Shown piece after piece: positions 3,301 through 60,824 of a DNA stretch of 64,000 bases. The stretch comes from Botryllus schlosseri (taxonomy: Eukaryota): positions 4,528,001 through 4,592,000 of the forward strand of contig CM119372.1 of assembly GCA_051294905.1 (NCBI GenBank), in the 5' to 3' direction. Under the pieces are notes generated by a model. It was not told the origin of the DNA, made no database searches, and worked only from the letters and a program-made list of their open reading frames with translations. The position numbers were made by a program, and so were the translations under genes. Numbering within the stretch: position 1 is the first letter of the stretch; each line of letters opens with the position of its first letter.

Positions 3301-4468
3301 CACGAGTCAATCCCCATTTCTGATACGCCAAGTCAAGTCATTTTAGCAAAGTGACTCGAGTCAAGTCAAGTCATACGAAAAAGGTGACTCGAGTCTTACT
3401 CAAGTCAAGTCATGACTCGAGCCATCCCAACACTGCTAATCACGCAGTGACTGCGTGATCTACGCATGCAATAATATTATTATGTAATTAATTCACATTA
3501 ATAGTTGGTAATACTATTAATACAAAATTCGCTGAGTGCCGAATTTACTGGCATTCGTCAGGGGAAGTATCAGAGTAGAGACTTAAAAAGAACGCTGTAT
3601 ATCAACAATCGTATCAGCAAATATGATGTCGTAGGCATAAAATTCAGATAGTGTTGATATGAGAGATGTGTCAAACATTGCAACTGGTCTAGGACCACAT
3701 CTTAGTAAGGCACATTGATTTCGAGTACCCTAATCTGAGTCGAGTAGCAAAAAAATGATACTCTGGAGCACTGAAATTATGTGCTCCATACCAGTAAGAG
3801 TTAATTAATCAACAAAAGTTACAGTTTCGTTAGTATTCTCAACTGTTGAAGCCTCGATTCGTCATATCTCAGCATACGGTACGAAACATGTCATACAAAT
3901 TAGTGGACACGACATATCTGTGTGAAGTTTTGATCAACCCGAAGTATTGCCACAAAGTGCATTGAAATAGGCATGGTCGAAAAAAGACGAAATTGTCTTC
4001 AATCTGATGTATAACTTGCATTATATTCTTTATATGTAGTAACATAAAAAGTACATATTTGAACACTCCACATCTTTTGCCCAGTACCAGCAAAACTACA
4101 GTAACAGTTCGTCAAGTTCGCATTTTACCATGAATTACTAAACTCATTTCGTCTTACCTCGTAATTGAATACTAGCAGATTTTTCCTTCCTCCCTGCTTA
4201 GCTAGTCTGATGTACTTTGAATCTGATTCTTTCGGGCGTTTATTCGGCCTGTAATACGTCAATTGATTTAATAATAACGTGTGTCAAGATGGTAGGTGGC
4301 TTTAACGACTTGCCTAACACCTATCTCCCTTCTCCATGCTTCTTCGTCGAGAGGATCCAACGCCGCTAAGCCTGGGACCTGTGATGCTGGTGGAACCAAC
4401 TGTTGTGGTTTATCGACTCGCTTGGACGGAGCGTGGTAGAACCACATCTGGCCAGTGTTCGCGTTCAT
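389..4468 (-). CDS. C7orf57: C7orf57-like (DUF5524) protein, multi-exon
   Basis: Phase-consistent exons 4468-4314, 4248-4158, 2803-2718, 2646-2490, [unresolved link], 840-713, 648-504, 443-389 (TGA). The translation has the motifs WFYHAPSKR..VPPASQVPGL, KESDSKYIRLAKQGGRKNLL, YPRVDWFDH, PEYMVHE..PFYTDHKSVWTRD and MSKLIGGGYGNEW, in the order recalled for human C7orf57. The join between 2490 and 840 needs an exon I could not place. Confidence 0.88.
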
Positions 4469-4756: not shown

Positions 4757-7700
4757 ATGACTTCACCAGGTAATATAGATCGATATTTTTCTGCAGATTT
4801 TTAACATAACAAAGTATTAAATTTCGCAGGAACAAAAATACTAGAAGATATTCTGACATTAAGCGATTTTCAGCAACTTCTCAGCGACGAACAGTTCGTG
4901 GATTTTTTCAACAAATTCACGTGTCTTCCGGTGAGATTTTTCGGGATAAACGAAAAGGTAGTCTAGCGATCATTAAAACTTTCTCATTTGTGTTAAGGCT
5001 TTTCCTCAGCTGGTTCAAATAACCAAAAAAGAATGCGGGTTTTTGCTTCATCCCCCGTTGCCCAATGCTTACGTGAGTTGGCTCGTTATTATCTACGTGC
5101 GTGGATATAGATCACAACAATTTGATACATTTTAGATTATAAATAGTAAAGGATTAGTAGAATGGCTGTGGAGGAAAAGGCTAACTTTCTTCGTCAAAAG
5201 CAAACTCTTCAGAGAGTATCGCCTTTGCAACATCTTGCTAAACTATTCGCTGGTGAGAAGAGGAGAATACTACGAAACAGAAAGTACGTCGTATTGCCAT
5301 GAATAATTCGTATCCGCATTATCATAGTTCCCCGAGCCTTACGCCATTACATTAAACCTCGTGTTCAGCTACAAAATACATCAAAGACTCGCTGAAATGG
5401 CTGCAGAAGCGAGCTCTTGGCAGAGTATCCAAGCTACGGAAATTCCGCAAATTTCTACGCAACACGGAGGACGGACTGAAACTGTATATTTACTGGCTTG
5501 AAGCCGAAAGACTGTATGGAACTCTCAGAAACGGTTTTTGTTTTATTTACGGTCCAGATTTTTTTTACTTCAGCGAACACGCGAAACATTTATTATGTGT
5601 GGGAGTAAGGTTATGCAGTAGCATCTGTTAATTAATGCGGGTGGCCTATATACGCAATAGCCAGAAATCGGCAGTAGGTATACCATGCGTTGTTAATTTC
5701 TTGCCCTTTTACTGGTATGTTGCAAACCTGCAATACGAATCTTATAAATGACCCATTAAAGCTTCTTTAAATCATAGGTATTTCCACATTAAATTACGCT
5801 CACGCGCTGCAATAGATGTCTTCAAATCAATAAAGGGCAAGTACTTCATTGGAGAAGGTAGAAGAAGAATGCCACAGCATTTGTTAGAAGAGGCATTCGA
5901 CAGTCTACCACCGTACCACTACAACCGAGGGATAGTGTCAGACGCTGTTTGCTACGATGTAACTTTTGCCATGTGTTTACAAAAGGTACGAATGATCTGA
6001 TCTTCTATTGATATTCTAATCGATGAACTGTAAGGGTGTTTCAAGCATTTTTATCGCTCGGAATGACGACTGCATTGCCTATGAACAGCAATGACAATGG
6101 CAATGGCAATAGCTGGATAAAATCGGGTGCCTGTGTGACTTGATTCTGAATCAATCAATCAATGGACGGATTATATTTTCATCTGCCCAAGACACACACA
6201 CAATGTACAATGCGATATACAGGACACACAATGCGATGTAATGAAAAGATAGAGGGATGCCGAATGACCAAACAGTTGGGGTCTCTTGAACTGGCAGCCA
6301 CCTCGACCTCGTGCCCGATGTCACAGTCTTCATCGATGTTATTCCTTCTTCGTCAGTTCCTTTTAGAAGCTACTTCTTGCTCTTTTTCTTTATTTATCGG
6401 GTCTTTTTTCTCTCTGGGCTTTTTTTGTCGCCGTAAGAACAACGACACGGGGGACGATGAGCCCATGCAGAATAGCCTCCGGAGGCGGAAATTGACCCGG
6501 TCCGCCTGCTTGGATGGCGCCGACGCTATCTCCCCCGGTTATCGAGTATGAAATCTGTGGCAGGTTCAAATATGTATACATTTTATGCAACCACAAGAAT
6601 ATAATGTCAGTTCTACATCATTCTAAAATAATTTGTTATTTTTTCGACTTCATACTGTTGCAGCCCACCCATTAGGGGTGTATTTGTTATAATTGTATAT
6701 TATTATTGTGGTAGTGTAGTGTAGTTGTTGTTGCTGGGGCCGCCAAGTGTCTGGTTCCGACTAGGTAGAATGGACACCTGGTGGACACTAGAGGTCGACC
6801 GATATTGATATTTACAGGCCGATACCGATACCGATATTTCGACGCTCACAAGGCCGATAACCGATATCATAGGCCGATATTAATATGGAAGGAGCAGAGA
6901 ACTATTTCGCCAAAAATATTATATATTAGGCAAGGTGGCACTTGTTCATGCCACAGAAAGGTGAACAACAAACGAGAAAACTGGAATCGAAAAGACTTAT
7001 TGCTTAATTGTGAACATTCGTTGAAATTTGGGATAACCCGAAAATCAAAACATGATACAGAATTGCAGATCAGTTCAGAAAAGGTAGATTGTAGTTAGAT
7101 ATAAAATATCGGTCGCGATATCGGCCTAGATTGGCCGATACCGATATTCGAGAAAGTTCCAAATATCGGCGCCGATAATCGGTCGACCTCTAGTGGACAC
7201 ATGAATTCCTGCCTCCTTCTTGTCAAAGTTGTGTCGTGAGGACGTATAGCAAAGCTCTATGAAAACGACTGTTGAATCTCTTTACATCTACTATACCAGG
7301 AGGTCCTCCCCATATGCCGAGTATGCCGTCGGTTTTGATCACGACTTCACAAACATGTCATTTCCACCAACGTTAGGGTTACGTAATTTTGGAATCGATT
7401 GTTGATATACGCTGTTCTTTCGAATTCTCTACTAGTTGCTGACGATTACCCCTGACGAGTGTCAGCCGAAAATATTCGGGTTCATTTTAATATGAATATA
7501 TTATTCAATTGTATATTGAAGTTCTGTACCTCAAAGAAGCTGTTCGAATCGAGAGAGGAGGACACTTTTAACAAATCATAAAAGTTGGTTTACCGAAATT
7601 GAAAAACCCGATTTTGAAATGTTTACGGGAAATCTTGTTGTGTTGACTAAAAACAAAAAGGTCCTCACTATGCCTCGACTCCCGAATCACCCACTTATTG

Positions 7701-10700
7701 CGATACATCTGTGGTGCTGACTGAAAAAAGGTCATCACTCTGACTCGAACGTCCTCATTACCTATTTCACGTCATTTATGCCGATTTTCAGTTGACCCTG
7801 TCCATTTGACTAGCTGTCAAAGCTGTAAAGGAGGACGAATTGACAATAACCGTAACTAGCGTACAGTACATAGCTCAGAACTATGCTGGGATTCGACCAA
7901 TTGAAGTTTCAATGCTCCCACGGCGGTAAATACTAACCCTTTTATGATGTACCTTGATAAATTCACTTTCATTGGCCAGGAGGGTATAATTTCAGCGCTC
8001 GTCATTAGAATTAATACTCGATTCATTGCACCTATCGGCGACTGGCATTTATATCGTTTAATTTAAGATATGTATAACTCGGATGCAACGCTATTGGTTG
8101 CCGAGATATCTCCTGGAACAAAGAGGGATCGCAGTAGAAAATGAAGAACGCGGCATGCTCAAAACGGCATTGAAATACTTACGAGGCATCATCAATTTGG
8201 ATGCGCAACAACAAGCAGCTGTCGATCAAGTTTTACCACTAGGATCGAATAGCAAGAACAGCAATGATTGTGCGGAAGATCTCAACTTACGTGGCAACGC
8301 AAGTAATAAAGGTAGGCCTATGCAATGCATACATAGGCTACTTCAACGTGTGCGTCTCAAGACCGGAGAGAACGTATATTGTTTGATACATAATCTTACA
8401 TTTACTGCTTATAATATACCGGTATTTATTGACAGATACAAACAAACGAAAGGAATCGTCGTCAGATGACAACGAATATTACGTTGCAAGGAAATTACAA
8501 TTACCGGTAAGATGTTAGAATATTATAGCCGAACTGTTAGACAGTACCGATAGCCTAACTTCATGAGCATAAGCATTGGCCTTAGCAACAGCGGTCTTAC
8601 TTGCTTAGTTCGAGATCACGCAAACTATGATAGAGATACCTTACAGTGAATTTGTGTCTTCGCGGTTTCTCATTGGCGACACGCAGGATGCATGTATTTC
8701 GATCAGTTAGCTCATTCATTATTAAAAGGAATTGGTAGCCAAACGCTTTTCGCGGTGTGGGCCTTCGCGTTGGGAATATAAAGCTCACAGCAAAGAACTC
8801 GCGGAGTATAGACGTGGGCTATGTCGCGAGGTATAGATTATATGCGCAAAGCATGTTAGACTTGTTAGTGCATTGCAGACTTGGACAGCTAGAACATTTT
8901 TAGCATTTTCAAATACAATTATAGCTACACATTTTTACAAATCAGATTAGAATTAGAATTATGCCTACACAAGTTTTTCCATATTAGACTGGAATTGGAA
9001 TTTTAGACACGCAGTGTTGTCCAAAGTAGATTAGAGTTAGAATTACTTAATCTGCGCAGCAAGGTTGGCTCGTTTCGCACTATCCAGTGATCCTGTAGCA
9101 TTTTCATGAAAACCAGGAATTAGATTAGAATTAAAATCAGCATAGAAACATTTCACGAATTAGGTTAGAATTAGATTACCCGCATTCCGCCCCAATTAGT
9201 ATAATTCGGCAACTATAATTACCGAGTTGTCCAAGTCTGGTGAAGAAATTAGTCGAGGGACTTACGGTTACTGGTACAGAAACAGAAGCGCACCCACAAA
9301 CTGTTCATCAAAGATCAACACGTAAAAAGTTCCGCGAAAAACAACGGCAGAAACAGATCTGATCCGGTAGACAGCGACTCGTCAAGCGACGACGAAGAGA
9401 CGTGCCGGCGAAGGATAAGGTCAATGAAAGAGAGCTCTCGTAATCGCAAAGCGCGAAGGAACCAGCAGCGATCTTCGAGTCAATCCAGGCGCAAGTATGG
9501 GTCGGATTCGGAGTACGACGCTGATTCCGATGCAGTCGATGGACGTACTGATACGCGTCTGCCAAACAGCAGGTATCCTTCCGTGTTATTGTTACACAAT
9601 TGAATGGTTTATTCATATTGAAATGAACCCGAATGTTTTCGGCTGACAATCGTCAACAACTAGTAGAGAATTGCAGAGAACATCGTATATCAGTGGTCGG
9701 GAACCTATGGCTCGCGAGCCATATATGGCTCTTTTGGGAATAACATATGGCTCTTTGACGTATTTTCAATTTTGTACTTAATTTTAGCGATATTGCAGTA
9801 ACTTGTTGGTAAATTTTCTTAACGGCCAGAATAAAGTTACTGTTGCGCCAGCGACCAACATCCCTCGCGAATTCGAATCGCGCGCTGCGTAAGCTTGGAT
9901 TACACCATACATTGGTTGATCAAAGAGAATAGCAGACATGGGGACGGCTATATGACAATCTAGTTTTCAAATACACATCGTCTTCTTGATCTACGCCGAG
10001 AAATGAACTGCCTTGGAAATGACACCCCAATTACAAATCCGAAATACAAACAACGCTTCGCTATGCACGCTCTTCATTTATAAGTAGGTTTCTAGTACTG
10101 CCGTAAAATGTAGGCGTAGTGCAACGTTTATGTTACCGCCGAATTGAGAAGTCGATCAATATTTAGATTTTCGGAATCAGTGCCACAGTTGTATTAGCGT
10201 AATATCAATTAATATAAATTCTGAGCTATTTACGATGAATTGCGCTATCACAGCATGATTTAGTAGCCTACCAGTTTTTACAGATAAAATATGGCCCCCA
10301 CGACTAATCCCATGTAGTGAGTTCGAATTTATTCTACCATGACGTCACGAATTTTCAATTGTGACGTAACAATTGATTGACATGTATGGCTCTTCGGGAG
10401 TTAAAATGGAAAATATACGTCTAATATGGCTCTTCAGACGAAAAAGGTTCCCGACCACTGTCGTATATCAACAATCGTAGCACGTAGCACAAACTATGAC
10501 GTCACCAGCATGAAATGTCGAATACTAGAGCGTTCAATGTACTATTTTTAGATGATACACGAACTCTTTTTGTTGACACAGCCTTGGCTGGTGTATTTTG
10601 ATAAAAGTCGACTCCAAGGCACACAAATGAAAGCGTGAACGACCCTTTCCGAGTACGCGAAATCCGTCGTCTCGATAATTTTTCCCACAGGCGGGATCAT

Positions 10701-13700
10701 CCAACAAGTCTTTGCCAATTGCAGAATTTATGGCCTCTGATTATTCCGCATTAATCTTGATAGGATGAGTCGACGGTGAGCTTTTCACCGAGCGTGATGC
10801 GCGTGTTCTAATATATCTAGGGACATGCTGATTTATGCGTTCCTGCAAGCGCTTTGACGTTCTTCCCACGTAGCCACAATCACAGTGACACTTAAATTCG
10901 GAAACTACGTTGCTCTGTTGAAGTGCAGGAAGCACGTCTTTACGTGTTGCAGTATAGATAACTAACCTACGTAGGTTAGTTATCTATAGTTGCAGGGAGC
11001 AGTTGCGTTGTCGTGAAAATCACGTTGGTCTTCACTGTGTCGTAACACTCATTGACCGCTGAAAGCAATTGCTTTTCAAAGCGGGTGGAAATAGGGCCAA
11101 TCCAAGGTGTAAAGATCTTTGGTTGTTCGTTCGGTAGGCTCTGTTGACTTTTTTTTGCGTTAAATTGCGTTTATTTCCTCTCTATGTCGTGGTTGATGAC
11201 ATGTTCAGGGTAACCGTTATCAAGTAAGATTTTGTCGATGTTGTCAAGTTCTAAGTTCAGTTTATTACCTGAACATATCATCAACGCTCTATGCACGAGG
11301 CTGGATATGAGGTTGAGAATTGAATAGTATATTCAATACGTATCGTTGGGAGAGGCCGTTCACACTTCCATTTGTGTACCTTGGGGTCGACTTTATCAAA
11401 ATTCACCAGTCAAGGCTGTGTCAACAAAAGGAGTTCGTGTACCATCCACAAATAGTTAGGGCTGGGCGAAATCGAGTACCTGAGTGATTCGATTCTGAAT
11501 CACGCAATATGCTTCGAGTCGAGTCGAGTATTCGAGTATCAGTCATTATGACGTCATAGCAGAATGTCATATGTCAAAGATCAACTGAGCACTTTTTATG
11601 CTACCACAAAGAATATGATGCCTGTATTCCGTCACATTACAGATACTCCGGTATTTTTCAACCATATGGACTTCTTTGCCCTTTGTGACAATGTTGGGGG
11701 ATGATCATAATTTTGTAAATGTGTTATTTTCTGTAACGTTAGTAGCTTGTACTATATGTTTCGTATGCTGCGATACGTCCAATCAAGGTTTCAAGGCAAC
11801 CAAAGTGGAAATTAGTATCGGAATTATAATTCTCGTTGACAAATTACCTTTCAGTGGCGAGGAACGTATAATTTCAGTACTCGGAAAAATCGACTTTTAC
11901 TACTCGACTCGAATCATTAAAATTAATACTCGATTCAGATTCGAGTACTCGAATCATTGTGCCCAGCCCTACAAATAGTACATTGAATGATCTCTCATTC
12001 GAAATTTCATGCTGGTGACGTCATATTTCATGATACGATTGTTGATATACAATGTTCTTTGCAATTCTCTACTAGTTGCTGACGATTACCCCTGACGAGA
12101 GACGAAAATATTCAGGTTCATTTCAATGTGAAAATACTAATCAATTGTATATTGAAGTTCTGTACCTCGAAGAAGCTCTTCAGATGTTATTGTTGTTGTG
12201 GTGATTTCTCAAGACTCTATGCGCTGATTACTGTAATCATTTAACCTCGCCCTGGTGATTCTGTTTGTACCTCAGTTGCGTATGTCTGTCTGTCTGTCTG
12301 CTTGGAAGTGGGTTTCAATTAAAGTTGCCACCACGGCATATATGCGGTGATTTGCTTATTACAGAAGCCAATGTGATAGTACAATGTCCCTGCCATAGTT
12401 TGTTATTCTTCTAATTTACCGAATTATTCAAGTAGATTGTATTCACTCACGCAAGTACTTTTGTATGCACACTGGGGTTGCTCAAAAATAACTTTTTTCC
12501 AAATTTTTGCGGCTATTCGATAAAATTGTTACGTTGGTGAAAAAAAAAAGGTTCGTACCAAATTTTAAAAATTTTGAATGTAATATAATTCATTTATTTC
12601 CTCAAATTTTACCGCCTATCCCGTGGAATTGACAAGTTGTCCAACCAATTCCAACTGGTAGAAGCGAAGCTATTGGAGCTGAAAATCTTGAATTTTAAAA
12701 ATTAGTATTGCCTGTTGATAATCCCAGAGATACTCGAATAACTTCACTTCTACGGGCTGTAATCGAGTCAAATTTGTTTCGCATAGTTTTCGTCGACAGG
12801 TTAACAGTTTCGTGGATTGGCGGGTAAAATTTGAAAAAAAAATTCTGTTTAGAATAAATTCAAAATTTTCCAAATCAAATAGCTACCCTTCATCTCGTTG
12901 GAATTGAGCCAAATTTGGTGAGCACCTTCTATTTTTGGCCAACCTACAACAAATTTAGCTGATAGCCGCAAAAATTTGAAAAAAAAAAGTTATTTTGAGC
13001 AACCTTAATGTATACTACCACTACTACTTGAACGGTGTCACAGTCAACAGTCCCTGAAAATCCCACTTGACGAACCACTGCAGTATACAGTTCTTCTGTA
13101 GCATTTTCAGTAAAAGCAGATATCGGAATAGAATTAGAATCCTATACTGACACGGAGGCACGGAGGCAATTTTGTTTTTTTAAAAAGGCCTTTGTTTAAA
13201 AACACTGTTTAAAACATTTTTTAAACAAAGTGTTTTAAAACAGTGGTTCTTAACTTTTTTCACCTCGAGGACCGGTAAAATTTCAAAAAATGTCCGCCGG
13301 ACCGGTGAACTTTCAAAATTGAAATGAAGCCAAAATGTAAAGTATGCAACCGTTTTTTGCAATTATATGGTGCTAGAGTGTGACATTTAGAGGGTTTTGA
13401 TCGCAATTAATCATCTTCATGAGGGCATCCATGTGATCTTATGGTAGTGAGTCTGCTGAGTCGAGGTAAAATTGCCTTGTCTAGATGAACGTGCTACCGC
13501 CGAGAGTCGTTTACAGTCTTTCGCGCCGAAGGCCGTGGGTTTAACCGACCACGCCAACACGAATAATATTCTTCTCTTTGACAATATCGAGAGAAGAAGC
13601 GTTTAGGAGTAGAACCAAGCACCTTGTCGTGCTACCTTGCTCATTGGCCACTGCCACCAGACGCAGGCTACTCTGGCAACTATACAAATACAATGAGTGC

Positions 13701-16700
13701 CGCAAGACAATACCTTATAAGTATAACAGCTATACCGGCCATGCGCAAACCCGGGCCGAAAAATTACTTCGTCAGCGCACCCAAAAAAACGCTGATCTTG
13801 GGCCCCCACAGAGCGATAAGCCAAACATCCGGGGACTTCGCCCCCGGACCCTACAGTTGGGTAGATATTTTCACCTGTACTTGTGAGCACATTCATTCTT
13901 CTCAGTGTAAGCAGAGAATTTATGTAGCTTAATCGCGCCAATAGCGAAAATTTTCGATCATTCATGACTGAATCGATATTCTCGCTGCCGAATATTTGGC
14001 ACAACTTTCGGAATCCCATGTTAGCCTGAACTTCATTATGTGTTGGTACGTCGTGGCGCGGTAATGGCTGACGTCGAAATGCCTATTCATGTAAATCATG
14101 CGTATTTCTCGGAAAAAGGCACCTAAAAACAAGACATTTAGTGACACTAAATCGCGCAAAGCGCGTAAAGAAATTGAAAAATGTTGGAAAATATTTCAAA
14201 CATTACGCCATGATTTATGTTCATTTGCCAAATAATTCTGGGCCCTTTTCAAGCTCGGCCACTCTCCAATTGGGTGGTTTGGGGTGCCCCAGTTACGGTC
14301 CTGTACAAAATGAATGACTCGAAAACGAATGATCGCGCACCGCTGAGTCAGCTCGTATCTGTTCTGTACTTGTCGTCTTCAACATTGCATCTTGAAATTA
14401 AGGTATAAAATTGTAATATACCGGGCGGACCGGCAGGAATGTCGTCGCGGACCGGCACCGGTCTCCGGACCGGCGGATGAGAACCACTGTTTTAAAACAC
14501 CGTTAGTTTTAAATCCAACCCTAGTTTAATTGATACCGTGGTGCAAGTATGATGCAGGTTCTGTATGGTTTCGTGTACACGGGTATTCGTGTATCACGGG
14601 TGGTATACACCAGAGATGAGCGGATTTGAAATTTCTATGTCCTAATACAATCCAAATCCGAACCTTCAAATCCAAATCCAATTCCTAATCCATAACTTTT
14701 TCGTATTCAAGTCCATGTCCAATCCTAATCTGATTCCAACTGGAAATTCAGAAAAAATACTAATTTATGCAATGGAGGGATTCGAAAATTTTCTTTCACA
14801 ACCAACGATTCACTTGATTCAAGATAACTTAGTAACCATAAGTACATTAATAACTGATCTGAATAATGTTTGTCGCCATTCGCCACACGACATTTCAATC
14901 TCCCAGAAAATAAGGTAAATTCAATCCAAATCCTAATCCGTCCTGAAAAAAATGTCTAATCCAAATCCAATCCAAATCCGACAAAATTTCACAAATCCTG
15001 TTTTTTCAAAACCTAATCCTAATCCATGCTCATCTCTGGTATACACGGGTGTGTCTAATCTCAAGTTTCTGCTAAGTGGTTAAAAGCGCTAATACTCTAT
15101 AGAGAATTTAAGCGATTATGCCAATGCCATTCGTGTTCCAGTTTCCATCTACATTCCGCCATACTCATCTCATGGTTCTGCCTATTCGCGCTATGTGTCA
15201 AGCCAACTATAACTTACATCGTATTGTGATTGCACAGTATGCACACTTTAGTTGTCATCAGAGTTGGATCAATTACATTATTTCAGTTCAATTACAATTA
15301 CAATTATAATTACTTTCATGCATGTTTCAATTACATTACAATTACAATTACTCCATGCTAAAAATATCAAATTACAATTACAATTACAATTACTCCTTGC
15401 ATGCTTCAATTACATTACAATTACAATTACAATTGCTGCTGTTGAACATGTAATTGGTTAATCATAAATTCAACCGTGCTCCTTGACAACCGTAGCGTCG
15501 TATTTAACAACAATTCAAGTCTAGTTCAGATTGTGTAGTAATAAATGCGTTTATGTGCGTACATAGTATGCTATTTGAACAGCTTCTTTGAGGTACAGAA
15601 CTTCAATATACAATTGAATAGTATATTCATATTGAAATGAACCCGAATATTTTCGGCTGACACTCGTCAGGGGTAATCGTTTAGCAACTAGTAGAGAATT
15701 CGAAAGAACAGCGTATACCAACAATCGTAACACAAAATAGCCAGCACGAAATGTCGAATACGAGAGCGTTCAATGTACTATTTTTAGATGGTACACGAAC
15801 TCTTTTTGTTGACACAGCCTTGGCTGGTGTAGCACTTCTTTACGTGTTGCAGGGAGCAGTTGCGTTGTCGTGAAAATCACGTTGGTCTTCACTGTGTCGT
15901 AACACTTATTGACCGCTGAAATCAATTGCTTTTCAAAGCGGGTGGAAATAGGCCCTATCCAAGGTAGATGGATGTAAACATCTTTGGTTGTTCGTTCGGT
16001 GGGCTCTGTTGACTTTTCTGCATTGAAATGCGTTACTTTCCGCATTCGACATTTCGTGCTGGTGACGTCATATTTTGTGTTACGATTGTTGATATACGCT
16101 GTTCTTTCGAATTCTCTACTAGTTGCTGACGATTACCCCTGACGAGTGTCAGCCGAAAATATTCGGGTTCATTTCAATATGAATATACTATTCAATAGTA
16201 TGCTATGTAAGATGTCATTGTGACGTAATATAAGCGTGTTTTGTATGCTCGGTAATTATGACTCACGTAATTGGAAATGTAAAATGTTATTTACCTAATT
16301 TCCTATGGATTAGGATTAAGGATAGGGTGCAGTATGTCGTTGAAAAAAGTATTATAATATATGCACGTGTTGGATTTGCGTATATAGTATATAATTAACG
16401 AAATAATATTATTTTTATCGAGGGACGTAGGAATTAGGATGAGGAGTAAAAACAGAGATAAGACGTTGTATAATATCCAGTGGTCTGGTTAGTTAGCCAG
16501 ACGAAGTAACGATGCAGCATCGTGATCTGAAATCGTATTGTAGATTGCCAACCCACGGATAGATGCGCAAGATGTGAGTCACGGATGAATACACCGACAA
16601 ACGTACTGCAGAGCCGGCTAAAAGCAGCAAACTTTGTAGTCCTAGAGCTGGCGATCCAAGCATCCAAATTTGATGCATCTGGTCTTTATCGTAAGCTATT

Positions 16701-40700: not shown

Positions 40701-43700
40701 GACGTCATAGTAGGTGGACATTGGCAATTGAAAATGCAGGCGAATTTTGCCGGATTAGGATTGGATTAGGATTAGAGATTGTTTTTAAACGGATTAGGAT
40801 TAGGATTGATCGATTTTCGGGGATATTGATGTGCGAATGGCGACAAAGTTCTTTGTCCCACTGAAGTTGCTTCATATAGTTTGGCACTAATTAAGCGTTT
40901 CGTTCATTGTTACAGAATTATAGGCATAAGATGTAGGCTCTATAGGTGGAATTCTAATTTTGAATCGAATTAGGATTGGGATTAGGATTGGAATGTACAG
41001 AATTTCTGGAATAGAATTAGGATTTGAATTTGAAACTTCGGATTTGAACTGGATTAGGACATCGAAATTCCAAATCCGCTCATCTTTGCTACGTACTACA
41101 TGTTTTTTCGAAATTATTTACACAATTATGGCATAGTTATACTATACAACGTTTGAAAACAAAACGCAATCTGTTTTTAAAGGCATTTTTTAAACACTGT
41201 TTAAAACATGTTTTGAACAAAATGATTTTGGACAACATTTGTTTTAAATGCCACCCTAATTGTACGGCATCATGCGGAAAAGTATACGTTACAAAGTTTT
41301 ACATCAATGTAAAATTTGATATTTCATTCCTCTAATTAATGGAAAAACGTCCGAGTCTATGCATTTTTAAATTGAGATATGCATTTGTAATCGATTTTGC
41401 GGCGTTTTCACTGGACACAAGTCACGACAACGCGATCTTGTTTGTTCCAGACGTTTTCGACAACAGAAGCGATAGCACCCTGTCGCCCGTATTGTACCTG
41501 CGTCGGGACTGGGACGCGCGCGTCAAGCAACGCATTGTAAACGGCCGCCTGATCACCTACAACTTCCTCGTCAACGATTTACACTTTTGGCGCGATGTGG
41601 AGTGGTAAGCCAGCGTGAAAGGCCGTTGTACAGTCCACAATAGGCGAACTGCTCTCCATGGTTTTATCGCCTCTTTCAAGTGTAGGACAATAGGAGCAAC
41701 GGGATAGCACCAGTGGCAGTTTGAAACATAATAATGAAACGCGAGAGGCGTTGCTATATTGTTCGGGTGTTTGTTTATGTTTTTGAGATACGCGCGCCAA
41801 CTAGGTTAGCATGAGATAGCTTTCCCTTATCAGAGTATCGTTACCTCACTGGGCATGACTACATGGAATATCATTGAAGTAAAGCTCCAATAACTACCTA
41901 GCTCAGATTTGATTTCACAAGCTGCTGTATAGGAAACAATCAATTGCTAGAAGTCACCTCAGTGTACAGTTGATGATATATTCATATATATTCACGTGGA
42001 AGACCTTCTAATAGGATCGATGTAAAGAGATGCACAATAGTGTTTAGACAGCTTTATTTCTGCGTCCTCACGGCAGCCAGTTTAAAGTCAGACAAGAAGG
42101 AAGCATGCATTGTCATGTGTCCACCAAGCGTCCTACACTTGGCGGCCCCAGAAATAACAGTACCGTCACAATAGCAACTAACAATCAGTACACATACACC
42201 CCTAAATGGGTGGGCCGTCACAGCTGACGATTACTCCTGACAGCCGAAGATATTTGGGTTTATTTCAATACGAATATACGATTCAATTGTATATCGAACT
42301 TCTGTACCTCCAAGAAGCTCTAGAATTCATCTCATTTGTTAGCGTATTGACATAGCGAAGAAAAGTGTTTGCGATCGCGCTAGGTACATTACGATAAGTA
42401 ATCTTAGGTAAGAATAATACCGATATGAGTAGAGCGACGAAATCTTGTCGAAATCAATTGTGCGAGGTGTATTTCTTCCGTCTCAAATTCAGACAGACAG
42501 GGAGTTAGCAGTGGCTATTTGAAGAGCTTCTTGGAGGTACAGAACTTCAATATACAATTGAATAGCGATAGTATATTCGTATTGACATGAGCATGAATTG
42601 AATATTTTCAGCTGACACTCGTAAGGGGTCGTCAGCAACTGGTAGAGAATTGGACTGAACATTGTGTATCAACAATCGTATCAAGCAATGTTTTCGTGAT
42701 CGTGCTGCCTCGTTAATCGTAGTGGGACGTTCGACAACTAGAAAATTTTCACTTCGTCCAAGTTAGATTAGAATTAGAATTGTAGCTACACAATTTATTT
42801 TTTAAATTAGATCGAATTAGCATTACTGAATTCGTAAGACTTGGAAATCGAATTACATTCCGGATTAGAAATAGAACGAAAATCAAGTTCATTTCGTATC
42901 AAATCAAACGTCATTCCCATAAGAACGAGAATGGCAAATATCTGTACGCCAAGCTTGGCCCGTTTCGCACCATACAGTTCTCCCGTAGCATTTACAGGAA
43001 AACCAGAATTTCGACTATAATTGAAATTAGAGCACAGAAACATTTCACAAATTAGCTTAGAGTTAGATTAAAAGTACTTGGCTCTAATTAGTCTAATCAT
43101 AGTGTCCTATATGGTGTGGACACAAGCAAATCTCACGGCTCAGTGAAATTGGTATACGTCACACTTTCCATTTGGTCAAAGGCAACTTTACGGCCCATTT
43201 TGACCGGCTTGCCGAGCGCTAAATTCGATAAAATGGGTATCAATGGAAAGCTGCTTCTGTACCGATTGCGAAACTATAAATTTTATTCTGCTCATGGTCC
43301 TGGAACCCCCCAAAATCAGCCTCGGAAATTGCTCTGTGATCGAGTTTTGACATTGTGACGCAACAATTCTGTCTGGCAAAACGAGAGAAAAGCTATGAAG
43401 AAAGAGCCAGACAGCATTGTTGCGTCACAATTCAAAACTCGATCACAATGCAAAATTCGAGGCTAGTTTTGGGGAGTTCCAGGACCGTGAGCAGAATAAA
43501 ATTTATCTTTTCGTAATCAGTACAGCAGCAGCTATCCATTGATACCCATTTATCGAATTTAACGCTCGGAAAGTCGGTCAAAAATGTCCGTAAAGTTGCC
43601 TTTGACCAAATGGAAAGTGTGACGTACACTTATTTCACTGAGCCGTGAGATTTGCTTGTGTCCACACCAAATAGGACACTATGGTCTAATTGTCCCAAGT

Positions 43701-46700: not shown

Positions 46701-48327
46701 AAAGATAGATGGAGGCTAATGCAATGATAACGCATAACGCTCCCGACGATACTTTCGGTGTGAACGCAACATTTATGGCACCAAAATGAAGAAACACATA
46801 TTTTATGAACATATCACATCCAGCATCTAGCGCAGGGATGGGAAACTTACGGACCGCGGACCGGCTTCGGCCTGCAAAGAGTTTCTATACCGTCAAAGTG
46901 AAATCCTAATCTAAAAGTATAGACAAATTTTATGCTCCAAAGAATGGATCCACGTTTTCCAACCACAGAAAGACTGTCATGAAACGACTTGTTCTGTTCA
47001 GGTTTACATATATATTTACGAGCAAACATTTTCGACCATGACAATTGAACATTAACAAGACGAGGCTGCATACCAATGTAACTGGTGAAATGAATTTCAG
47101 GATTGGAGCGTAATGCTTTGTTAGCAACGAAACACTCTTTGTTCATAAAAAAAATCAGCCTTGTCGATAGGGCATCCTCCATAAGAATGCGCCAAATCTG
47201 ATAGCCGAGCTTTAAGAGCAGGTATATCATTGTCCGATTTATGACGAGGGTCAGCCGAAAATAGACTGTTAAATTGTATATTAAAGTTCTGTACCTCCAA
47301 GAAGCTGTTCCTTGCATTGAGAAAAATTATGGAAATACTTCGGAAATTTTTATTTTCAAACGACTGTTCACTTATTTGATGAGACTGACAACTTCAAATC
47401 AAGAAGGTTTTTCAGGCATTACGAAGTCACACTGATTGACGTTACTGTCTCCATATTTTTATTTTTTTCCACAAACCCCAACAAAACGTCTCTAAACAGA
47501 AATTTGTTTGTATCAGCAGGTTATTGGAAAATTGGCCATGAAAATGAGTTTCCACACTACGATAGTCCATGTCAGACGATTATTATTATGATATGAGTCA
47601 TGAGGTTTTAGCAGTTGTGGTGCGAAACTGCCTCATGCTTTCACAAATTAAAAAATAAAATAAAAATTAGGTTATCAACCATTTTAAAAATTTAGAGGTC
47701 TCGTGGACCCCCTGAAATTGCTTCGCGGACCCCCGGTTGAGAACCGCTGTGTTATATCATAGTTGCGCTATACGACTATATTCATCCGCGCGTGTCATAC
47801 TACAGGCTGCAGACAATTTAGATTCGAGGAATGATGCATTCTAAAATGGATGGGAGTCAGACTTAGAGAAAGAGAGAGAGAGAGAATTTATTCATCATCG
47901 CAAAAAATTCAATAATATATTCATGTTGAAATAAACCCGAATATTTTCGGCTGACACTCGTCAGCAAATTTTGTACTTTGAAAATGTAAACAGTGTATAG
48001 TAAATATCATATAAATGCGGCTGTGCGTGGGAAGTTTAAATATGTACCTTTAACGCGACCATATCGAATATAATGCCAGCCCGGCATTTATTACAGCGAA
48101 TAGTAAGACAATCTTAGATTTTAACTATGCTGACTTTTCTAAGAGTACGAGGGTCATGTCAGTACCAATCACAATTAAAACTTGTCGGCGTGCGCCTTAA
48201 TGCATGACTTTTCGCCGCAGTTGAGGAAATGGGACTCCGGTTAACCTTCTCAGTGCGCCATGGTGTGACTCTGATTCAGCCCTCGCTGCGGAAGAGACTA
48301 CTAACGGAAAATCCTGCCAGGTATTGA
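4757..48327 (+). CDS. RGSL1: RGSL1/RGS22-like multi-RGS-domain protein, ~28 exons
   Basis: GT-AG, phase-consistent exons: 4757-4769, 4830-4930, 4998-5072, 5136-5283, 5369-5533, 5816-5985, 8068-8311, 8436-8506, 9280-9572, [unresolved ~17.5-17.9 kb], 18339-18417, 18491-18653, 19111-19328, 19392-19490, 20656-20776, 21937-22109, 23887-24136, 25172-25390, 25596-25785, 26363-26455, 27930-28110, 32557-32787, 34581-34773, 40049-40202, 41451-41604, 43759-43897, 44902-45026, 46035-46267, 48221-48320/7. Motifs include FVDFFNKFTCLP, KGLVEWL..RLTFF, RYWLPRYL, LNFWLDVE, RPKNFQDIL..HLHFFNRFL..PLRFW, QLLQCGADVIREI, EEKWF, NDLHFW, SDVLPKVRINIP..FHKATITIFP..FWRRFC and LTFSVRHG, which resemble RGSL1. The 3' end is uncertain: read-through stop at 48327, or a splice to ~48972. 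Confidence 0.85.
6656..7312 (+). mobile_element. Probable solo LTR interrupted by a MITE
   Basis: Has TG...CA ends. A related copy lies on the minus strand at ~41996-42222, sharing gcccacccatt.aggggtgtat, ggggccgccaagtgt and atctctttacatc, and containing AATAAA. No clear TSD. Confidence 0.45.
6789..7192. mobile_element. hAT-type MITE
   Basis: TIR tagaggtcgaccgat/atcggtcgacctcta, 8-bp TSD GTGGACAC, and ccgata subterminal repeats. Confidence 0.9.
7448..7481 (+). ncRNA. Minimal type I hammerhead ribozyme in a Penelope terminal-repeat fragment (~7395-7550)
   Basis: ACCC-CTGACGA-GTGTCAGCC-GAAA-ATAT-TC-GGGT gives the full hammerhead core, stem I ACCC/GGGT, a 1-bp stem II and a palindromic loop III. 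Confidence 0.75.
8877..9239. mobile_element. hAT-derived MITE of the CTAATT-repeat family
   Basis: TIR cagacttggaca.ct/agttgtccaagtctg with internal attagaattagaatt units. Many relatives occur elsewhere in the window. Confidence 0.7.
9691..10460. mobile_element. hAT-type MITE nested in the Penelope repeat
   Basis: TIR cagtggtcgggaacc/ggttcccgaccactg; 8-bp TSD TCGTATAT. Confidence 0.92.
11457..11971. mobile_element. hAT-type MITE nested in the Penelope element
   Basis: TIR tagggctgggc/gcccagcccta; 8-bp TSD CAAATAGT. Confidence 0.92.
12474..13005. mobile_element. Fold-back MITE (long inverted arms)
   Basis: gggttgctcaaaaataac...gttattttgagcaacc; related to 26771, 57588 and 60825. Confidence 0.7.
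13241..14489. mobile_element. hAT-type MITE containing a nested element (~13530-14323)
   Basis: TIR cagtggttct/agaaccactg; 8-bp TSD TTTTAAAA. The inner segment shares its end (gttacggtcctg) and body with 37022-38347. Confidence 0.8.
14611..15038. mobile_element. hAT-type MITE with AATCC subterminal repeats
   Basis: TIR cagagatgagc/gctcatctctg; 8-bp TSD GTATACAC. Relatives at 40266-40647 and ~40736-41088. Confidence 0.9.
15641..15674 (-). ncRNA. Minimal type I hammerhead ribozyme
   Basis: The reverse complement reads ACCC-CTGACGA-GTGTCAGCC-GAAA-ATAT-TC-GGGT, sense to the Penelope ORF and ~100 nt downstream of it. Confidence 0.75.
16135..16168 (+). ncRNA. Minimal type I hammerhead ribozyme
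   Basis: Identical 34-nt motif in the inverted terminal repeat. Confidence 0.75.
18232..18265 (+). ncRNA. Minimal type I hammerhead ribozyme
   Basis: Identical 34-nt motif in a solo terminal-repeat fragment (~18178-18297), although the flanks have diverged. Confidence 0.72.
19770..20330 (+). mobile_element. R4/Dong-like non-LTR retrotransposon endonuclease fragment, split by a MITE
   Basis: Removing the MITE gives KILWDVPVITDRQIRSNRPDIMIKLIKKRKCFYVDTVDITWP, a restriction-like endonuclease (R/K)PD...D motif typical of this clade. Confidence 0.7.
19876..20238. mobile_element. hAT-type MITE
   Basis: TIR tagggttaccata/tatggtaacccta; 8-bp TSD TCATGATC. Partial relatives at ~1574 and ~24176. Confidence 0.92.
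21310..21837. mobile_element. hAT-type MITE with GACTCGAGTC subterminal repeats
   Basis: Inverse-orientation relative of 59189-59751; near-TSD gaaaatat/gaaaataa. Confidence 0.8.
22180..23575. repeat. Degenerate ~37-40-bp tandem array (ctaattctaatctaatttggaaaa..tgtgtatctata) inside a hAT-derived element
   Basis: Dozens of visible units. Similar arrays at 24240-24930 and, in reverse, 34910-36290. Confidence 0.85.
24240..24930. repeat. CTAATT-family tandem array
   Basis: Same unit as 22180-23575, with a higher-order duplication. Confidence 0.8.
24985..25160 (+). mobile_element. SINE 3' fragment
   Basis: Matches the body and CAA-rich tail of the SINE at 39693-39905 (cgtaagcggtgt...aagcctaga...aaatgacc..gtagtcgac..caccatgaatac). 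It ends just before the acceptor of exon 25172. Confidence 0.65.
26771..27347. mobile_element. Fold-back MITE
   Basis: ggggtgtt.aaaaatgac...gtcatttttgaacacccc with long inverted arms and TA flanks. Confidence 0.85.
29082..31805 (-). mobile_element. P-superfamily (THAP9-like) DNA transposon, degenerate
   Basis: ~100-bp TIRs (cggggcctacgatacttacggcct...), 7-bp TSD TCGGAAC, and an internal transposase pseudogene. Confidence 0.92.
29500..31209 (-). pseudogene. THAP-domain P-element transposase, frameshifted and internally deleted
   Basis: THAP C2CH motif (CCVYGC..FHFP..WKP...ICELHF), VTDNHSSN, KQNVNLA, DPFERRFSRYRQMSGG (~30150-30195) and the C-terminal YVVAGY..C..C..RGGLLAPS, spread over several frames. 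Confidence 0.88.
32150..32505. mobile_element. Penelope-like fragment with inversion and a mutated hammerhead (32444-32477)
   Basis: Similar to 10575-10685, followed by an inverted terminal repeat. The motif ends GAAA-ATAT-CC, so U16.1 is lost. Confidence 0.7.
34910..36290. repeat. CTAATT-family tandem array (~38-bp unit, ~76-bp dimer)
   Basis: Alternating units attagaattattgctgcgtagttttt and gaatt..acctacacattttcttccaa. These explain the periodic ORF 35169-35498. Confidence 0.88.
36603..38601. mobile_element. hAT-type MITE with a nested insertion
   Basis: TIR cagtggttcccaacc/ggttgggaatcactg; 8-bp TSD ATATAAAG. Confidence 0.9.
37022..38347. mobile_element. Non-autonomous hAT-type element (~1.3 kb)
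   Basis: TIR cagggccgtaac/gttacggccctg; 8-bp TSD TCAATACC; inverse relative at 51242-52461. Confidence 0.9.
39693..39905 (-). mobile_element. tRNA-derived SINE
   Basis: The minus strand begins ggcgagatagcgcagtgg (A box), has gggctcgcgtcc (B-box-like) and ends in (CAAA)n. A second copy lies at ~24985-25160. Confidence 0.7.
40266..40647. mobile_element. hAT-type MITE
   Basis: TIR cagagatgagc/gctcaactctg; TSD ccatgaaa/ccattaaa. Confidence 0.85.
43098..43683. mobile_element. P-type fold-back MITE
   Basis: ~280-bp inverted arms starting catagtgtcctat; 7-bp TSD GTCTAAT. Confidence 0.88.
46377..47749. mobile_element. hAT-type MITE with internal inserts
   Basis: TIR cagtggttctcaacc/ggttgagaaccgctg with gcggacccc subterminal repeats; TSD not clean. 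Confidence 0.72.
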
Positions 48328-52780: not shown

Positions 52781-52990
52781 CACTATACAGTTCTCCTGCA
52801 TGGCTAAACACTCTTTCCGGTGGCGCTGATGTTGCAGTCGTGTCTACGAGTTCTCGAGCAGCAGCAGCCTTGAGATGAGGAAAACGATTTTCTCTTTTCC
52901 AGTTACTCAAAACATCACAGTCCATTCTCTCACTCTCTGCTGCGAAATATCTTTCCGCATCATCCTCTAATATATTTTCTTTGGTTAGAT
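52781..52990 (-). pseudogene. hAT transposase C-terminal dimerisation-domain fragment
   Basis: DVLSNWKRENRFPHLKAAAARELVDTTATSAPPERVFSHAGELYS. The frame continues on the far side of the 50900-52780 insertion. Confidence 0.8.
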
Positions 52991-59751: not shown

Positions 59752-59813
59752 GCTTCGATCACGACATCAGTGCTGCTGAACAATATGAATAAAGTATTCT
59801 CGTTATTTTTCAG

Positions 59814-60387: not shown

Positions 60388-60824
60388 GTGAGTAGATTTT
60401 TAAGTTGTGTTCGACGCGTTTGCTGTGCGACATTTTCCATGGCGATACACGATGTTTCGATAACATCGTGCTGGTTGCATAACGTGATTACGGTTAACGG
60501 TCCTGGGTATAGTTCACCTTATCCAAATTCGATTATTATTATAATTTTCATTCACTTTAATTTTCATATCGTAGGCCCCGTTTTAGCTATATTGTCCTAA
60601 CAACAACTTCGAAATTTTATTAAAATCCAAATTAAACTGAAATACTACAAAAATCAAGTTCATTTCATCTCAAATCAAAGGTTATTCTGACGAGCACGAG
60701 AAGGGCAAACGCAGACAGTTGTATGCTATAATTTTAATTTCAATCGCATTTCTGGTTTACCTGAAAATGCTATGGCAAAACTGTGCAGTGCAAAACGAGC
60801 CAAGTTCGGTGTACCTGTACAATA

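Follow-up and report, generated by a model that had tools for sequence, protein, structure and literature searches.

Copies of a hammerhead motif at the locus

The window, a 64,000-nucleotide stretch of the Botryllus schlosseri genome, contains 14 copies of a hammerhead motif region within repeats of ~60–260 bp. An exact 34-mer is present at 7448–7481(+), 15641–15674(-), 16135–16168(+) and 18232–18265(+), as a sequence-only reading of this DNA had reported and as sequence matching bore out. It recurs with one mismatch at 32444(+) and with three at 20393(-), and was matched in 0 of 100 shuffled sequences. The decayed or truncated copies placed by the same reading at ~3555(-), 9627(-), 12088(+), 42233(+), 42600(-), 47242(+) and 47935(-) were all found; its total of ~13 copies becomes 14 with an additional one at 2913–3006(-). 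Four copies hold the exact 34-mer, one carries a U16.1>C change, one has a mutated stem I 5′ strand, one is truncated inside stem I, and the remaining seven have indels or core mutations. Most had been described as solo; the majority stand alone or in head-to-head pairs (15572–16201, 10462–12188 and 32144–32514). Six of the window copies have a short-type and seven a long-type 3′ end.

The copy at 7448 lies in a tail fragment of a Penelope-like element (PLE) at 7396–7549(+), which extends from -52 to +101 relative to the hammerhead start, is 98% identical to the full-length unit and holds the complete hammerhead module. Here, stem I consists of ACCC (7448–7451) and GGGT (7478–7481), and the core box CTGACGA occupies 7452–7458. 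The stem II part comprises G10.1 (7459), a bridging T (7460), GTCAGC (7461–7466) and C11.1 (7467), and is followed by GAAA (7468–7471), the palindrome AATATT (7471–7476) and C17 (7477). GTCAGC is complementary to an upstream GCTGAC at 7438–7443, which is predicted from sequence and covariation to be the 5′ strand (10.2–10.7) of a pseudoknotted stem II. The proposed cleavage after UUC is supported as a prediction and would fall at 7477|7478 in this copy, upstream of the element's ATG at 7492–7494.

The exact 34-mer on the reverse strand belongs to a PLE 3′ fragment at 15572–16041(-), from which a 324-bp internal deletion (junction at ~15829–15831) has removed the GIY-YIG core; its 34-mer is exact but its upstream pseudoknot strand is mutated (GCTAAAC). 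The head-to-head partner at 16041–16201(+), spanning -94 to +66, and a solo tail fragment at 18172–18301(+), spanning -60 to +70, both have short-type 3′ ends, and in their exact copies (16135 and 18232) the upstream strand is intact. The solo fragment at 20357–20461(-) retains the core and has TATC in place of ACCC in the stem I 5′ strand of its motif at 20393–20426. The U16.1>C copy (motif at 32444–32477) is part of a fragment at 32303–32514(+) that spans -148 to +69 and is paired head to head with an ORF-end piece at 32144–32294(-).

Decay takes several forms in the other copies. The core is mutated at 2913–3006(-) (GTGACGA, GGAAA) and at 42516–42683(-), a copy of ~80% identity with the changes CTTACGA and CTGAAAA. 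The fragment at 3548–3630(-) contains the upstream region as far as the CTGACGA box only, stem I and the CTGACGA box are deleted at 9593–9692(-), and 7 nt are missing from the core and stem II at 42223–42319(+). At 47085–47310, an internal ORF piece (47085–47240(-)) adjoins what is left of a decayed, internally deleted motif, together with a tail (47260–47310(+)), while the copy at 47906–47964(-) is 5′-truncated inside stem I and begins at the CTGACGA box, without ACCC or the upstream strand. An older PLE fragment at 10462–11316(-), 85% identical and identified by blastn and tblastn, encodes ORF residues 601–845 including the GIY-YIG region; it stops ~37 nt short of the hammerhead position and so lacks the motif. 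Its head-to-head partner at 11354–12188(+) consists of an ORF-end piece (11354–11456) and a tail (11969–12188) lying ~510 bp apart, and the motif at ~12088(+) has a 4-nt deletion in stem II.

The repeat and its Penelope-like element

The repeat is very probably the 3′ end (pseudo-LTR) of a young and very abundant PLE, of which the window copies are dead insertion products and whose self-cleavage is a prediction. The assignment to a PLE family with a ribozyme motif, already made from the sequence alone, is supported by a reverse transcriptase match, the DKG motif, pseudo-LTRs and tail-type 3′ ends. The element ORF matches Pfam RVT_1 at 32 bits (cut-off, 29.6; E = 9e-8 and 1.1e-7) and contains the DKG motif, which is named in PMC8557442. 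A GIY-YIG-like stretch, VVY..YVGRT..R..QH, scored below the Pfam cut-off of 22.6 (17–18 bits; E = 0.0065 and 0.0036), and the domain was not listed by Pfam for the full-length ORF; the sequence reads VVYEFKCHCDCGYVGRTSKRLQERINQH. The best database relatives of the ORF are 40–64% identical, one of them a reverse transcriptase of an octocoral, and among the 120 homologues listed one combines PF01541 with a reverse transcriptase domain and another does likewise.

In the full-length copy L036, the pseudo-LTR at 1–392 equals 2684–3075 at 99.5% identity. Genomic tandem arrays have a spacing of 2,692 bp, head-to-head pairs are common, and open frames in the tandem and inverted arrays reach 857–863 aa. 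Because units stand in such arrays, the hammerhead lies both 104 nt past a stop codon and 14 nt ahead of the next ATG. Across the genome we counted 3,093 exact 34-mers (reversed control, 0), and many copies are 98–99% identical.

The motif had been placed immediately 3′ of a GIY-YIG ORF. This describes full-length copies elsewhere in the genome, such as L036, where the hammerhead begins 104 nt past the stop codon, but not the window. No intact GIY-YIG ORF precedes a hammerhead there: the ORF before 15641(-) has lost its endonuclease core, and the sole GIY-YIG-coding fragment, 10462–11316(-), has lost its hammerhead. No reverse transcriptase or GIY-YIG domain was detected when the 197 window ORFs of at least 70 aa were all scanned with Pfam; it took blastn and tblastn searches with the full-length unit to reveal the pieces of the element in the window.

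The copies share two alternative 3′ ends, at ~+61 to +68 and ~+97 to +104 past the motif start. In a sample of 40 copies the distribution was bimodal, with 20 ends at +55 to +71, 16 at +95 to +104 and 4 at +75 to +83. Such a pattern corresponds to the optional 30–40-bp 'tail' of PLEs and to the two sites at which Frangieh 2024 (PMC11167929) reported reverse transcription to start. At their 5′ side the copies begin at scattered points, from -17 out past -400; a cluster near -52, considered as a transcription start, was unsupported in the 40-copy sample.

We also considered whether the short copies form a separate retrozyme-like or SINE-like family, spread by small ribozyme-processed and possibly circular RNAs. 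Most copies are indeed short (60–260 bp) and far more numerous than full-length ones, and a preprint ties vertebrate non-LTR retrozymes to PLE pseudo-LTRs (10.64898/2026.07.22.740005). However, the 5′ ends form a continuum with no favoured start, just one of 100 genomic copies sampled starts at the predicted cleavage position, and the copies run collinear with the autonomous element (98–99% identity). Short tandem arrays of the module are absent from the window, the internally deleted copy was unique among 40 scored of 1,352 candidates, and genomic tandems account for the tandem junction reads. A separate family is thus highly improbable. The retrozyme-like non-autonomous derivatives suggested earlier were not found; the copies are ordinary 5′-truncated insertion products.

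Core, stem I and stem III

As the sequence-only reading held, the motif is consistent with a type I hammerhead whose stem III is palindromic: the core is kept, stem I covaries and the palindrome persists. The core CUGANGA ... GAAA ... UH occurs in type I order in all lineages, and position 17 is C, U or A, never G. Among 57 distinct sequences, the 3-8 pair is CG in 34, UA in 15 and UG in 8, and is unpaired in none; the search pattern permitted a C/A combination, which did not occur. In a set selected for stem I, this stem is 100% paired and three of its four pairs change on both sides. Families collected with no such filter have a stem I that is 97.1% and 81% paired, compared with 1.5–48% when the strands are slid. 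Stem III consists of one base pair and a loop whose letters vary but which remains palindromic (AAUAUU, AAGCUU, AACGUU, AAAAGCUUUU and AUAUAUAU); the palindrome is imperfect in one family (AAGUCUU). Two subfamilies that are 86.6% identical overall are invariant over ~65 nt around the motif, and relatives at 33–65% protein identity have the same motif architecture.

Covariance models did not recognise this motif. An Rfam scan of the window at the gathering score gave no matches, and on L036:200–480 no Rfam hammerhead family matched at E up to 10, the only hit (E = 4.1) being to a snoRNA model. As a monomer, the RNA has a minimum-free-energy fold made of two different hairpins, by which the core is masked (z = -1.49). 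The missing Rfam match and the non-hammerhead fold would fit a chance resemblance in a terminal repeat that is conserved for another reason, for example as a promoter or terminator, and a promoter role is suggested by the TGACGTCA element and A/T-rich boxes that the repeat contains. This is scarcely conceivable in view of the architecture, which recurs with different letters in at least 10 lineages, where three helices and the 3-8 pair show compensatory changes. Moreover, the motif occupies the position of the hammerhead in all canonical PLEs (PMC4209133; PMC8557442).

A probable pseudoknotted stem II

The sequence-only reading had assumed a 1-bp stem II and had given this as typical of PLE hammerheads. 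Neither statement was borne out. In published PLE hammerheads, stem II has 6–8 bp and it is stem III that is missing or 1–2 bp long (PMC4209133). In the family described here, no stem II hairpin is present between A9 and G12, and locally only G10.1-C11.1 can form. Instead, the complement of six loop II bases is found 4–5 nt upstream of stem I, and the two strands covary.

Relatives of the motif were sought genome-wide with IUPAC patterns. At least 10 different, fully complementary versions of the pairing occur across the PLE lineages of this genome and metagenome relatives: GCUGAC/GUCAGC, UCUGAC/GUCAGA, UCCGAC/GUCGGA, UCCAGU/GCUGGA, UCUAGC/GCUAGA, GUGCC/GGCAC, ACUAAC/GUUAGU, ACUGGC/GCCAGU, ACUGAC/GUCAGU and ACAAUU/AAUUGU. 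In one alignment (A3), 97.3% of cells are paired and both-side changes are seen in 8 of 15 pairs, a level reached by 0 of 500 shuffles. In a second (A4; 57 distinct sequences in fixed register), the pseudoknot is 81.9% paired, compared with 28–41% in slid controls; five of its six pairs change on both sides, with 72 both-side-change cells against 28.7 in shuffles (0/500). This covariation is drawn from ~10 lineages, several of them in one genome and mutually related, and many of the aligned rows are dead copies. A covariance model (R1) run over 80 metagenome loci yielded no new lineage.

Together, these data indicate that stem II is likely a 7-bp helix completed by the strand upstream of stem I. 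According to the folding model, the pseudoknot pairing is energetically competitive: the duplex contributes a calculated -8.1 kcal/mol, and the fold with the pseudoknot enforced reaches -9.7, compared with a minimum free energy of -10.5. An alternative CUGAC/GUCAG hairpin was considered as a conserved switch and rejected, as families with a UUGAAGA core are unable to form it.

Geometrically, the upstream strand would stack on G10.1-C11.1 to give a 7-bp, pseudoknot-closed stem II, with one bridging base crossing the helix. The 4–5-nt linker would then connect stem I with the distal end of stem II, replacing the loop-loop contact of full hammerheads. No description of a pseudoknotted stem II in PLE hammerheads was present in the titles, abstracts and text passages searched, although earlier supplements may show one. 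That a whole clade of PLEs uses an undescribed topology, with the stem II 5′ strand displaced upstream of stem I into a pseudoknot and a 4–5-nt tether in place of the loop-loop contact, is a real possibility, if somewhat short of probable.

Predicted cleavage and the copied RNA

RNA reads span the UUC^GGGU site; their ends do not accumulate there, and no position qualified as a start or an end. The RNA depth per strand falls smoothly over the site, from 332–369 at positions 342–348 to 293–335 at 349–355. These reads come from three raw runs with the same species label and represent almost entirely solo fragments on both strands. Depth over the ORF body was 0–3, which means that tandem transcripts were hardly sampled. 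Every inserted copy extends 30–70 nt beyond the predicted cut; as the inserted copies run past the cut site, the RNAs that were copied must have been uncut. For the PLE of Anolis, PMC11167929 reports that hammerhead mutants inserted normally in vitro and that no reads ended at the site, and PLE minimal hammerheads cleave poorly in vitro (PMC4209133).

Self-cleavage, if it occurs, may proceed as follows. Two motifs, in one tandem transcript or in two RNAs, would pair via the palindrome to form stem III and cut after UUC. Cleavage would release an ORF-bearing RNA with a very short leader, while uncut RNA would be the template copied into new sites. Hammerhead cutting just ahead of a start codon has a precedent in RNA viruses (PMC13725137), which serves as an analogy for a cut just upstream of the ATG.

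Alternatively, the conserved module could mainly be a structured signal in the RNA, read by the element-encoded protein for template recognition close to the sites where reverse transcription starts or for translation control, with self-cleavage weak, vestigial or incidental. The conserved block is wider than the hammerhead (~-30 to +40 and beyond), and the reverse-transcription start sites inferred from the 3′ ends lie only 30–70 nt downstream. The uncut origin of the inserted copies, the absence of RNA ends at the predicted cut and the lack of effect of the Anolis mutants on in vitro insertion (PMC11167929) also favour such a signal, and Craig et al. (PMC8557442) raise the possibility that hammerheads may merely parasitise PLEs. 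However, the positions that are kept are the catalytic hammerhead set, CUGANGA, GAAA and a non-G at position 17 (C/U/A). The 3-8 pair covaries as C-G/U-G/U-A, with the permitted C/A in 0 of 57 sequences, and the letters of stem III change while the palindrome persists. Protein binding alone explains these features poorly, and we regard a predominantly protein-directed signal as rather unlikely.

Comparison with known hammerheads

The occurrence of a dispersed family, as first noticed here, is in itself ordinary: hammerhead motifs were described in PLE repeats in 2014, and these elements commonly leave truncated tails behind as debris. In many respects the motif resembles the minimal PLE hammerheads (PMC4209133; Lunse, Weinberg and Breaker 2017, as cited in PMC6765202). 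Both have the type I topology and a terminal-repeat location, a stem I of 4–7 bp, U3-A8 core variants and thousands of dispersed solo copies, and in both stem III is an A15.1-U16.1 pair with a palindromic loop, implying dimers. The published consensus has a hairpin stem II with one unpaired 5′ base (Cervera and De la Pena 2014, PMC4209133). In contrast, the core boxes described here are fixed 9 nt apart (8 in one relative), and the stem II 5′ strand lies upstream of stem I, giving a pseudoknot; the supplements on minimal hammerheads may show variants.

Poseidon PAc of Anolis carolinensis (PMC11167929) likewise has a reverse transcriptase and GIY-YIG ORF between pseudo-LTRs and a hammerhead at the ORF start. 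RNA reads ending at the site are absent there too, and insertions end at two nearby internal sites, both within ~100 nt of the ORF start (the 'tail'). The PAc ORF, however, starts inside the hammerhead, which is described with an ordinary stem II and loop II and is cut 26 nt after the ATG, whereas the cut predicted here lies 14 nt before the ATG, and 3–27 nt before it in relatives.

In the PLEs of the Hydra clade and Chlamys, the hammerhead is near the 3′ end of a 2–2.7 kb unit (Craig et al. 2021, PMC8557442). Every row of the table for these elements has a hairpin stem II of 3–9 bp and a stem III of 2–4 bp, and an upstream strand appears in 0 rows. The same text flags 'HHR_core' elements that fit no descriptor; two of its elements, Naiad_Bfor, which carries an 'HHR_core', and Naiad_Mley, inspected by eye only, gave no clear case of the pseudoknotted architecture.

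The non-circularly permuted (type-SGC) hammerheads described in PMC10085705 also have a core that can be drawn only with pseudoknots, and a linker of a few bases that joins the stem I side to the stem II side and is proposed to hold both. They come from metatranscriptomes rather than PLEs and their three core blocks are reordered, whereas the order here is that of type I and only one stem II strand is displaced. Animal non-LTR retrozymes (PMC7229834; 10.64898/2026.07.22.740005) share the type I fold, PLE ancestry and dispersal, but are short tandem protein-less units with full hammerheads and circular RNAs, in contrast to the truncated pieces of a coding element found here.

Significance

A pseudoknotted stem II would explain how these motifs escape Rfam models and hairpin-based descriptors. 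If it is active, a large class of animal hammerheads is overlooked by descriptors that require a hairpin in stem II, and some elements classed as 'hammerhead core' or as hammerhead-less may hold working ones. The design, which is backed by covariation, raises the possibility that a covalent tether replaces the tertiary contact that makes full hammerheads fast. The two pseudoknot strands offer simple mutants for asking whether PLE hammerheads cut and why, and this young family, with its intact 845-aa ORFs, could serve as an experimental system.

Motif copies in the window

The exact 34-mer, ACCCCTGACGAGTGTCAGCCGAAAATATTCGGGT, was re-found at 7448(+), 15641(-), 16135(+) and 18232(+), four occurrences where the genome average predicts about 0.4, and had no match in 100 shuffles. 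Self-comparison from 7448 delineated a repeat of about 60–260 bp, and comparing the full-length unit with the window returned the same copies. The sequence-only reading had claimed about 13 copies: all are genuine, including its nine variant or decayed sites, but the count rises to 14 hammerhead-region copies with an extra decayed one at 2913–3006(-). In the alignment of copies, 4/14 carry the exact 34-mer. The copy at 32444(+) has one mismatch (U16.1>C), that at 20393(-) has three and a mutated stem I 5′ strand, that at 47936 is truncated at the CTGACGA box, and 7/14 contain deletions or core mutations.

None of the window copies is a working element. Pfam identified no reverse transcriptase or GIY-YIG domain in the 197 window ORFs of ≥70 aa, and tblastn with the full Penelope-like element (PLE) ORF retrieved pieces only. 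Residues 601–845 are encoded at 10462–11316(-), 77–83% identical over two pieces and without a hammerhead; residues 647–730 and 826–845 lie at 15773–16042(-), where the 324 bp encoding the endonuclease core are deleted. Three head-to-head pairs occupy 10462–12188, 15572–16201 and 32144–32514. Non-autonomous, retrozyme-like derivatives had been suggested; however, the one internal deletion junction had no second copy when 40 of the 1,352 candidates were scored, and the deleted copy is therefore not a spreading derivative.

The window contains further features. An RGS-domain open frame at 32432–32803(+) (E=3e-9) starts within the Penelope fragment 32303–32514, which lies directly upstream of the RGS-coding exon or in an adjoining intron. 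A unit of ~65–85 bp, with dozens of matches that are 74–85% identical, forms two oppositely oriented arrays separated by about 10 kb (22553–24844(-) and 34892–36252(+)), and recurs at 8877–8981; this is a minisatellite with no relation to the Penelope repeat. A THAP domain scoring above cut-off (E=2.3e-9) lies in the 306-aa open frame at 30298–31215(-), which is possibly a domesticated gene or one derived from a transposase. The open frame at 52596–53063(-), whose hAT-family dimerisation region scores at cut-off (E=1.4e-4), is a DNA transposon remnant. Glycosyltransferase family 7 N-terminal regions in open frames 59793–60392(+) (E=1.5e-24) and 63142–63858(+) (E=3.7e-29) belong to galactosyltransferase-like genes, either as exons or as paralogues lying side by side.

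The repeat belongs to a Penelope-like element

The exact 34-mer occurs 3,093 times (1,568 + 1,525) in the 495.5-Mb genome, where the reversed control gave 0 hits. The 154-bp repeat had 1,947 first-look candidates, and many of the 40 scored were 98–99% identical. Thirty fetched loci share a common 3′ end, with upstream stops varying from −52 to beyond −1,500 relative to the motif start. The longest copies contain an open frame ending about 100 nt 5′ of the motif, which scores above cut-off for Pfam RVT_1 (E=9e-8) and has a weak, below-cut-off match to GIY-YIG (E=0.0065). A DKG motif is present in the frame, as is VVYEFKCHCDCGYVGRTSKRLQERINQH. The database relatives of its protein are 40–64% identical, ~840 aa long and, among the matches listed, mostly on contigs of ~2.7–3 kb. 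A protein search of the genome gave 9,064 candidates; the 90 scored included open frames up to 857–863 aa.

In locus L036, which holds a full-length unit, motifs at 323 and 3006 define a unit length of 2,683 bp. Its terminal repeat (pseudo-LTR) spans 1–392 and recurs at 2684–3075; the stop codon lies 104 nt upstream of the downstream motif, and the first ATG 14 nt downstream of the upstream motif's predicted cut. Many of the 90 scored protein matches were arrayed in tandem with a 2,692-bp spacing or paired head-to-head. In 40 copies sampled with no filter on flanks, 5′ ends were scattered from −17 to beyond −400, and 3′ ends formed two groups, at +55 to +71 (20/40) and +95 to +104 (16/40), with 4/40 between. 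The element's features match those of canonical PLEs, which are described with partial tandems, truncated copies joined in inverted orientation, an optional 30–40-bp tail (PMC8557442) and two adjacent internal start sites of reverse transcription (PMC11167929).

A palindrome, TGACGTCA, followed by TATTTTGT, lies about 65 nt 5′ of the motif (L036:255–275) and at the equivalent place in two further loci, L045 and L048. This stretch is invariant between two subfamilies and intact in none of the window copies (the nearest, at ~16062, is partial); it is a candidate pseudo-LTR promoter element. Separately, two copies on contig 1 of this genome, L230 and L231, lie ~260 kb apart; their flanks are identical as far as they were compared, suggesting that a segmental duplication has carried a Penelope fragment along.

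Conservation of the predicted hammerhead

Read as a type I hammerhead, the motif comprises stem I (ACCC/GGGU), the core CUGACGA, nine bases (GUGUCAGCC), GAAA, then A15.1, loop AUAU and U16.1, and C17, with the predicted cut 5′ of GGGU. Rfam did not recognise it, and the monomer minimum-free-energy fold consists of two unrelated hairpins (z = −1.49). The comparative evidence for a hammerhead is stronger. A block of ~65 nt around the motif is invariant between two subfamilies with an overall identity of only 86.6%. Among 80 metagenome-contig loci of relatives (33–65% protein identity), a loose descriptor demanding only the core boxes, the 10.1–11.1 pair and four stem I pairs gave 48 hits, 39 of them with a 9-nt spacer and in terminal-repeat sequence of element copies. 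The relatives vary in stem I (UCCC/GGGA, ACUU/AAGU, CAUACU/AGUAUG), core (UUGAAGA, UUGAAAA, CUGAAGA, CUGAUGA), stem III palindrome (AAGCUU, AACGUU, AAAAGCUUUU) and position 17 (C, U or A).

Two patterns without a stem I filter were searched in the Botryllus genome: TTGAARAG-N7-YGAAAA gave 863 hits (control 33) and CTGADGAG-N7-YGAAAA 1,449 (control 9). In the families so found, stem I was 97.1% and 81% paired, against 1.5–48% with the partner slid. At 3–8, 57 distinct sequences had C-G (34), U-A (15) or U-G (8), and none had C/A, though the pattern permitted it. These features, the U3-A8 variant and the stem III palindrome among them, are those reported by Cervera and De la Pena for PLE minimal hammerheads (PMC4209133). 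The hits include at least three more Penelope families of the pseudoknotted design described below, exemplified by L136 and L140 (TTGAAAAGAGGCACCCGAAAA) and by L165 and L178 (CTGATGAGAGTTAGTC / CTGATGAGAGCCAGTC); one combines a U3-A8 core with the imperfect palindrome AAGUCUU.

Stem II probably includes an upstream strand

In the published PLE consensus, stem II is a hairpin of 6–8 bp (PMC4209133). The sequence-only reading had described PLE hammerheads as having a 1-bp stem II; local pairing here is indeed limited to G10.1-C11.1, but GCUGAC (7438–7443), four bases 5′ of stem I, is complementary to six loop II bases, GUCAGC (7461–7466). The corresponding positions are complementary, with differing letters, in every lineage examined for the upstream strand: UCUGAC/GUCAGA, UCCGAC/GUCGGA, UCCAGU/GCUGGA, UCUAGC/GCUAGA, GUGCC/GGCAC, ACUAAC/GUUAGU, ACUGGC/GCCAGU, ACUGAC/GUCAGU and ACAAUU/AAUUGU. 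Neither descriptor nor patterns ever demanded this pairing.

In alignment A3 (21 sequences), the pseudoknot helix was 95.1% paired, with both sides changing in 4/6 pairs. In A4 (57 distinct sequences from 120 instances, in a fixed rather than structure-based register, including three known out-of-register rows, one base-shifted row and several truncated copies that lack the upstream strand), it was 81.9% paired, with both sides changing in 5/6 pairs; slid controls were 28–41% paired. Cells with changes on both sides numbered 72 against 28.7 in shuffles (0/500 reached this value). We propose that positions 10.2–10.7 of a 7-bp stem II come from the upstream strand.

The geometry does not vary between lineages: the pseudoknot helix has 5–6 bp, and one base (none or one in the relative L077) bridges it after G10.1; classical pseudoknot rules permit a one-base bridge across a 6-bp helix. 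From the helix 3′ end to the core box there are 8–11 bases, made up of linker and stem I. The short linker would hold stem I to the far end of stem II, comparable to the tether between stems noted for type-SGC permuted hammerheads (PMC10085705). Computed energies were −8.1 kcal/mol for the pseudoknot duplex and −9.7 for the enforced fold, and the minimum free energy was −10.5; in this model the pairing competes with an alternative hairpin. The more distant relative L120 (34% protein identity) apparently has an ordinary hairpin stem II, read by eye. The Hydra-clade and Chlamys PLE hammerheads tabulated in PMC8557442 (File S2) all have a hairpin stem II.

Predicted cleavage and its possible role

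In one bulk and two single-cell RNA runs, raw reads fell only in the short tail region, on both strands, and 65–98% continued into unrelated sequence; they therefore derive from solo fragments within other transcripts. At L036:368, 377 and 423 (runs X22 and X23), hundreds of single-cell reads share a common unrelated flank (agreement 0.87–0.98), so one or a few solo copies lie within strongly expressed host transcripts. Read depth falls smoothly across the predicted cut at 7-nt resolution. No position at UUC^GGGU qualified as a molecule start or end in the three runs, which sample almost only solo tail fragments, with an ORF-body depth of 0–3. In the main rival explanation, the module would serve chiefly as a structure for protein recognition or regulation.

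Boundaries fell within the last 13 nt before the cut in 5 of 100 sampled genomic copies, and exactly at it in only 1. Every inserted copy runs 30–70 nt beyond the predicted cut, so the copied RNAs were uncut, in agreement with the in vitro result for PAc, the Poseidon element of Anolis carolinensis (PMC11167929). Cutting, if any, would take two motifs, on tandem transcripts or two RNAs, paired via the palindrome. It would free an ORF-bearing RNA with a 3–27-nt leader, and the uncut RNA would be the transposition template. RNA viruses with hammerheads directly before start codons offer a precedent (PMC13725137). The commonest family among the relatives (found at L072, L085 and further metagenome loci) has its ATG directly after GGG, 3 nt past the predicted cut, so a cut RNA would be near leaderless.

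Published work already links hammerheads to Penelope repeats and also covers the dimer proposal, the tails and the head-to-head debris. Pseudoknot contacts between hammerhead loops are known from other hammerhead types. In the titles, abstracts and text passages covered, we found no account of an upstream strand completing stem II; it may be a new form of PLE hammerhead.
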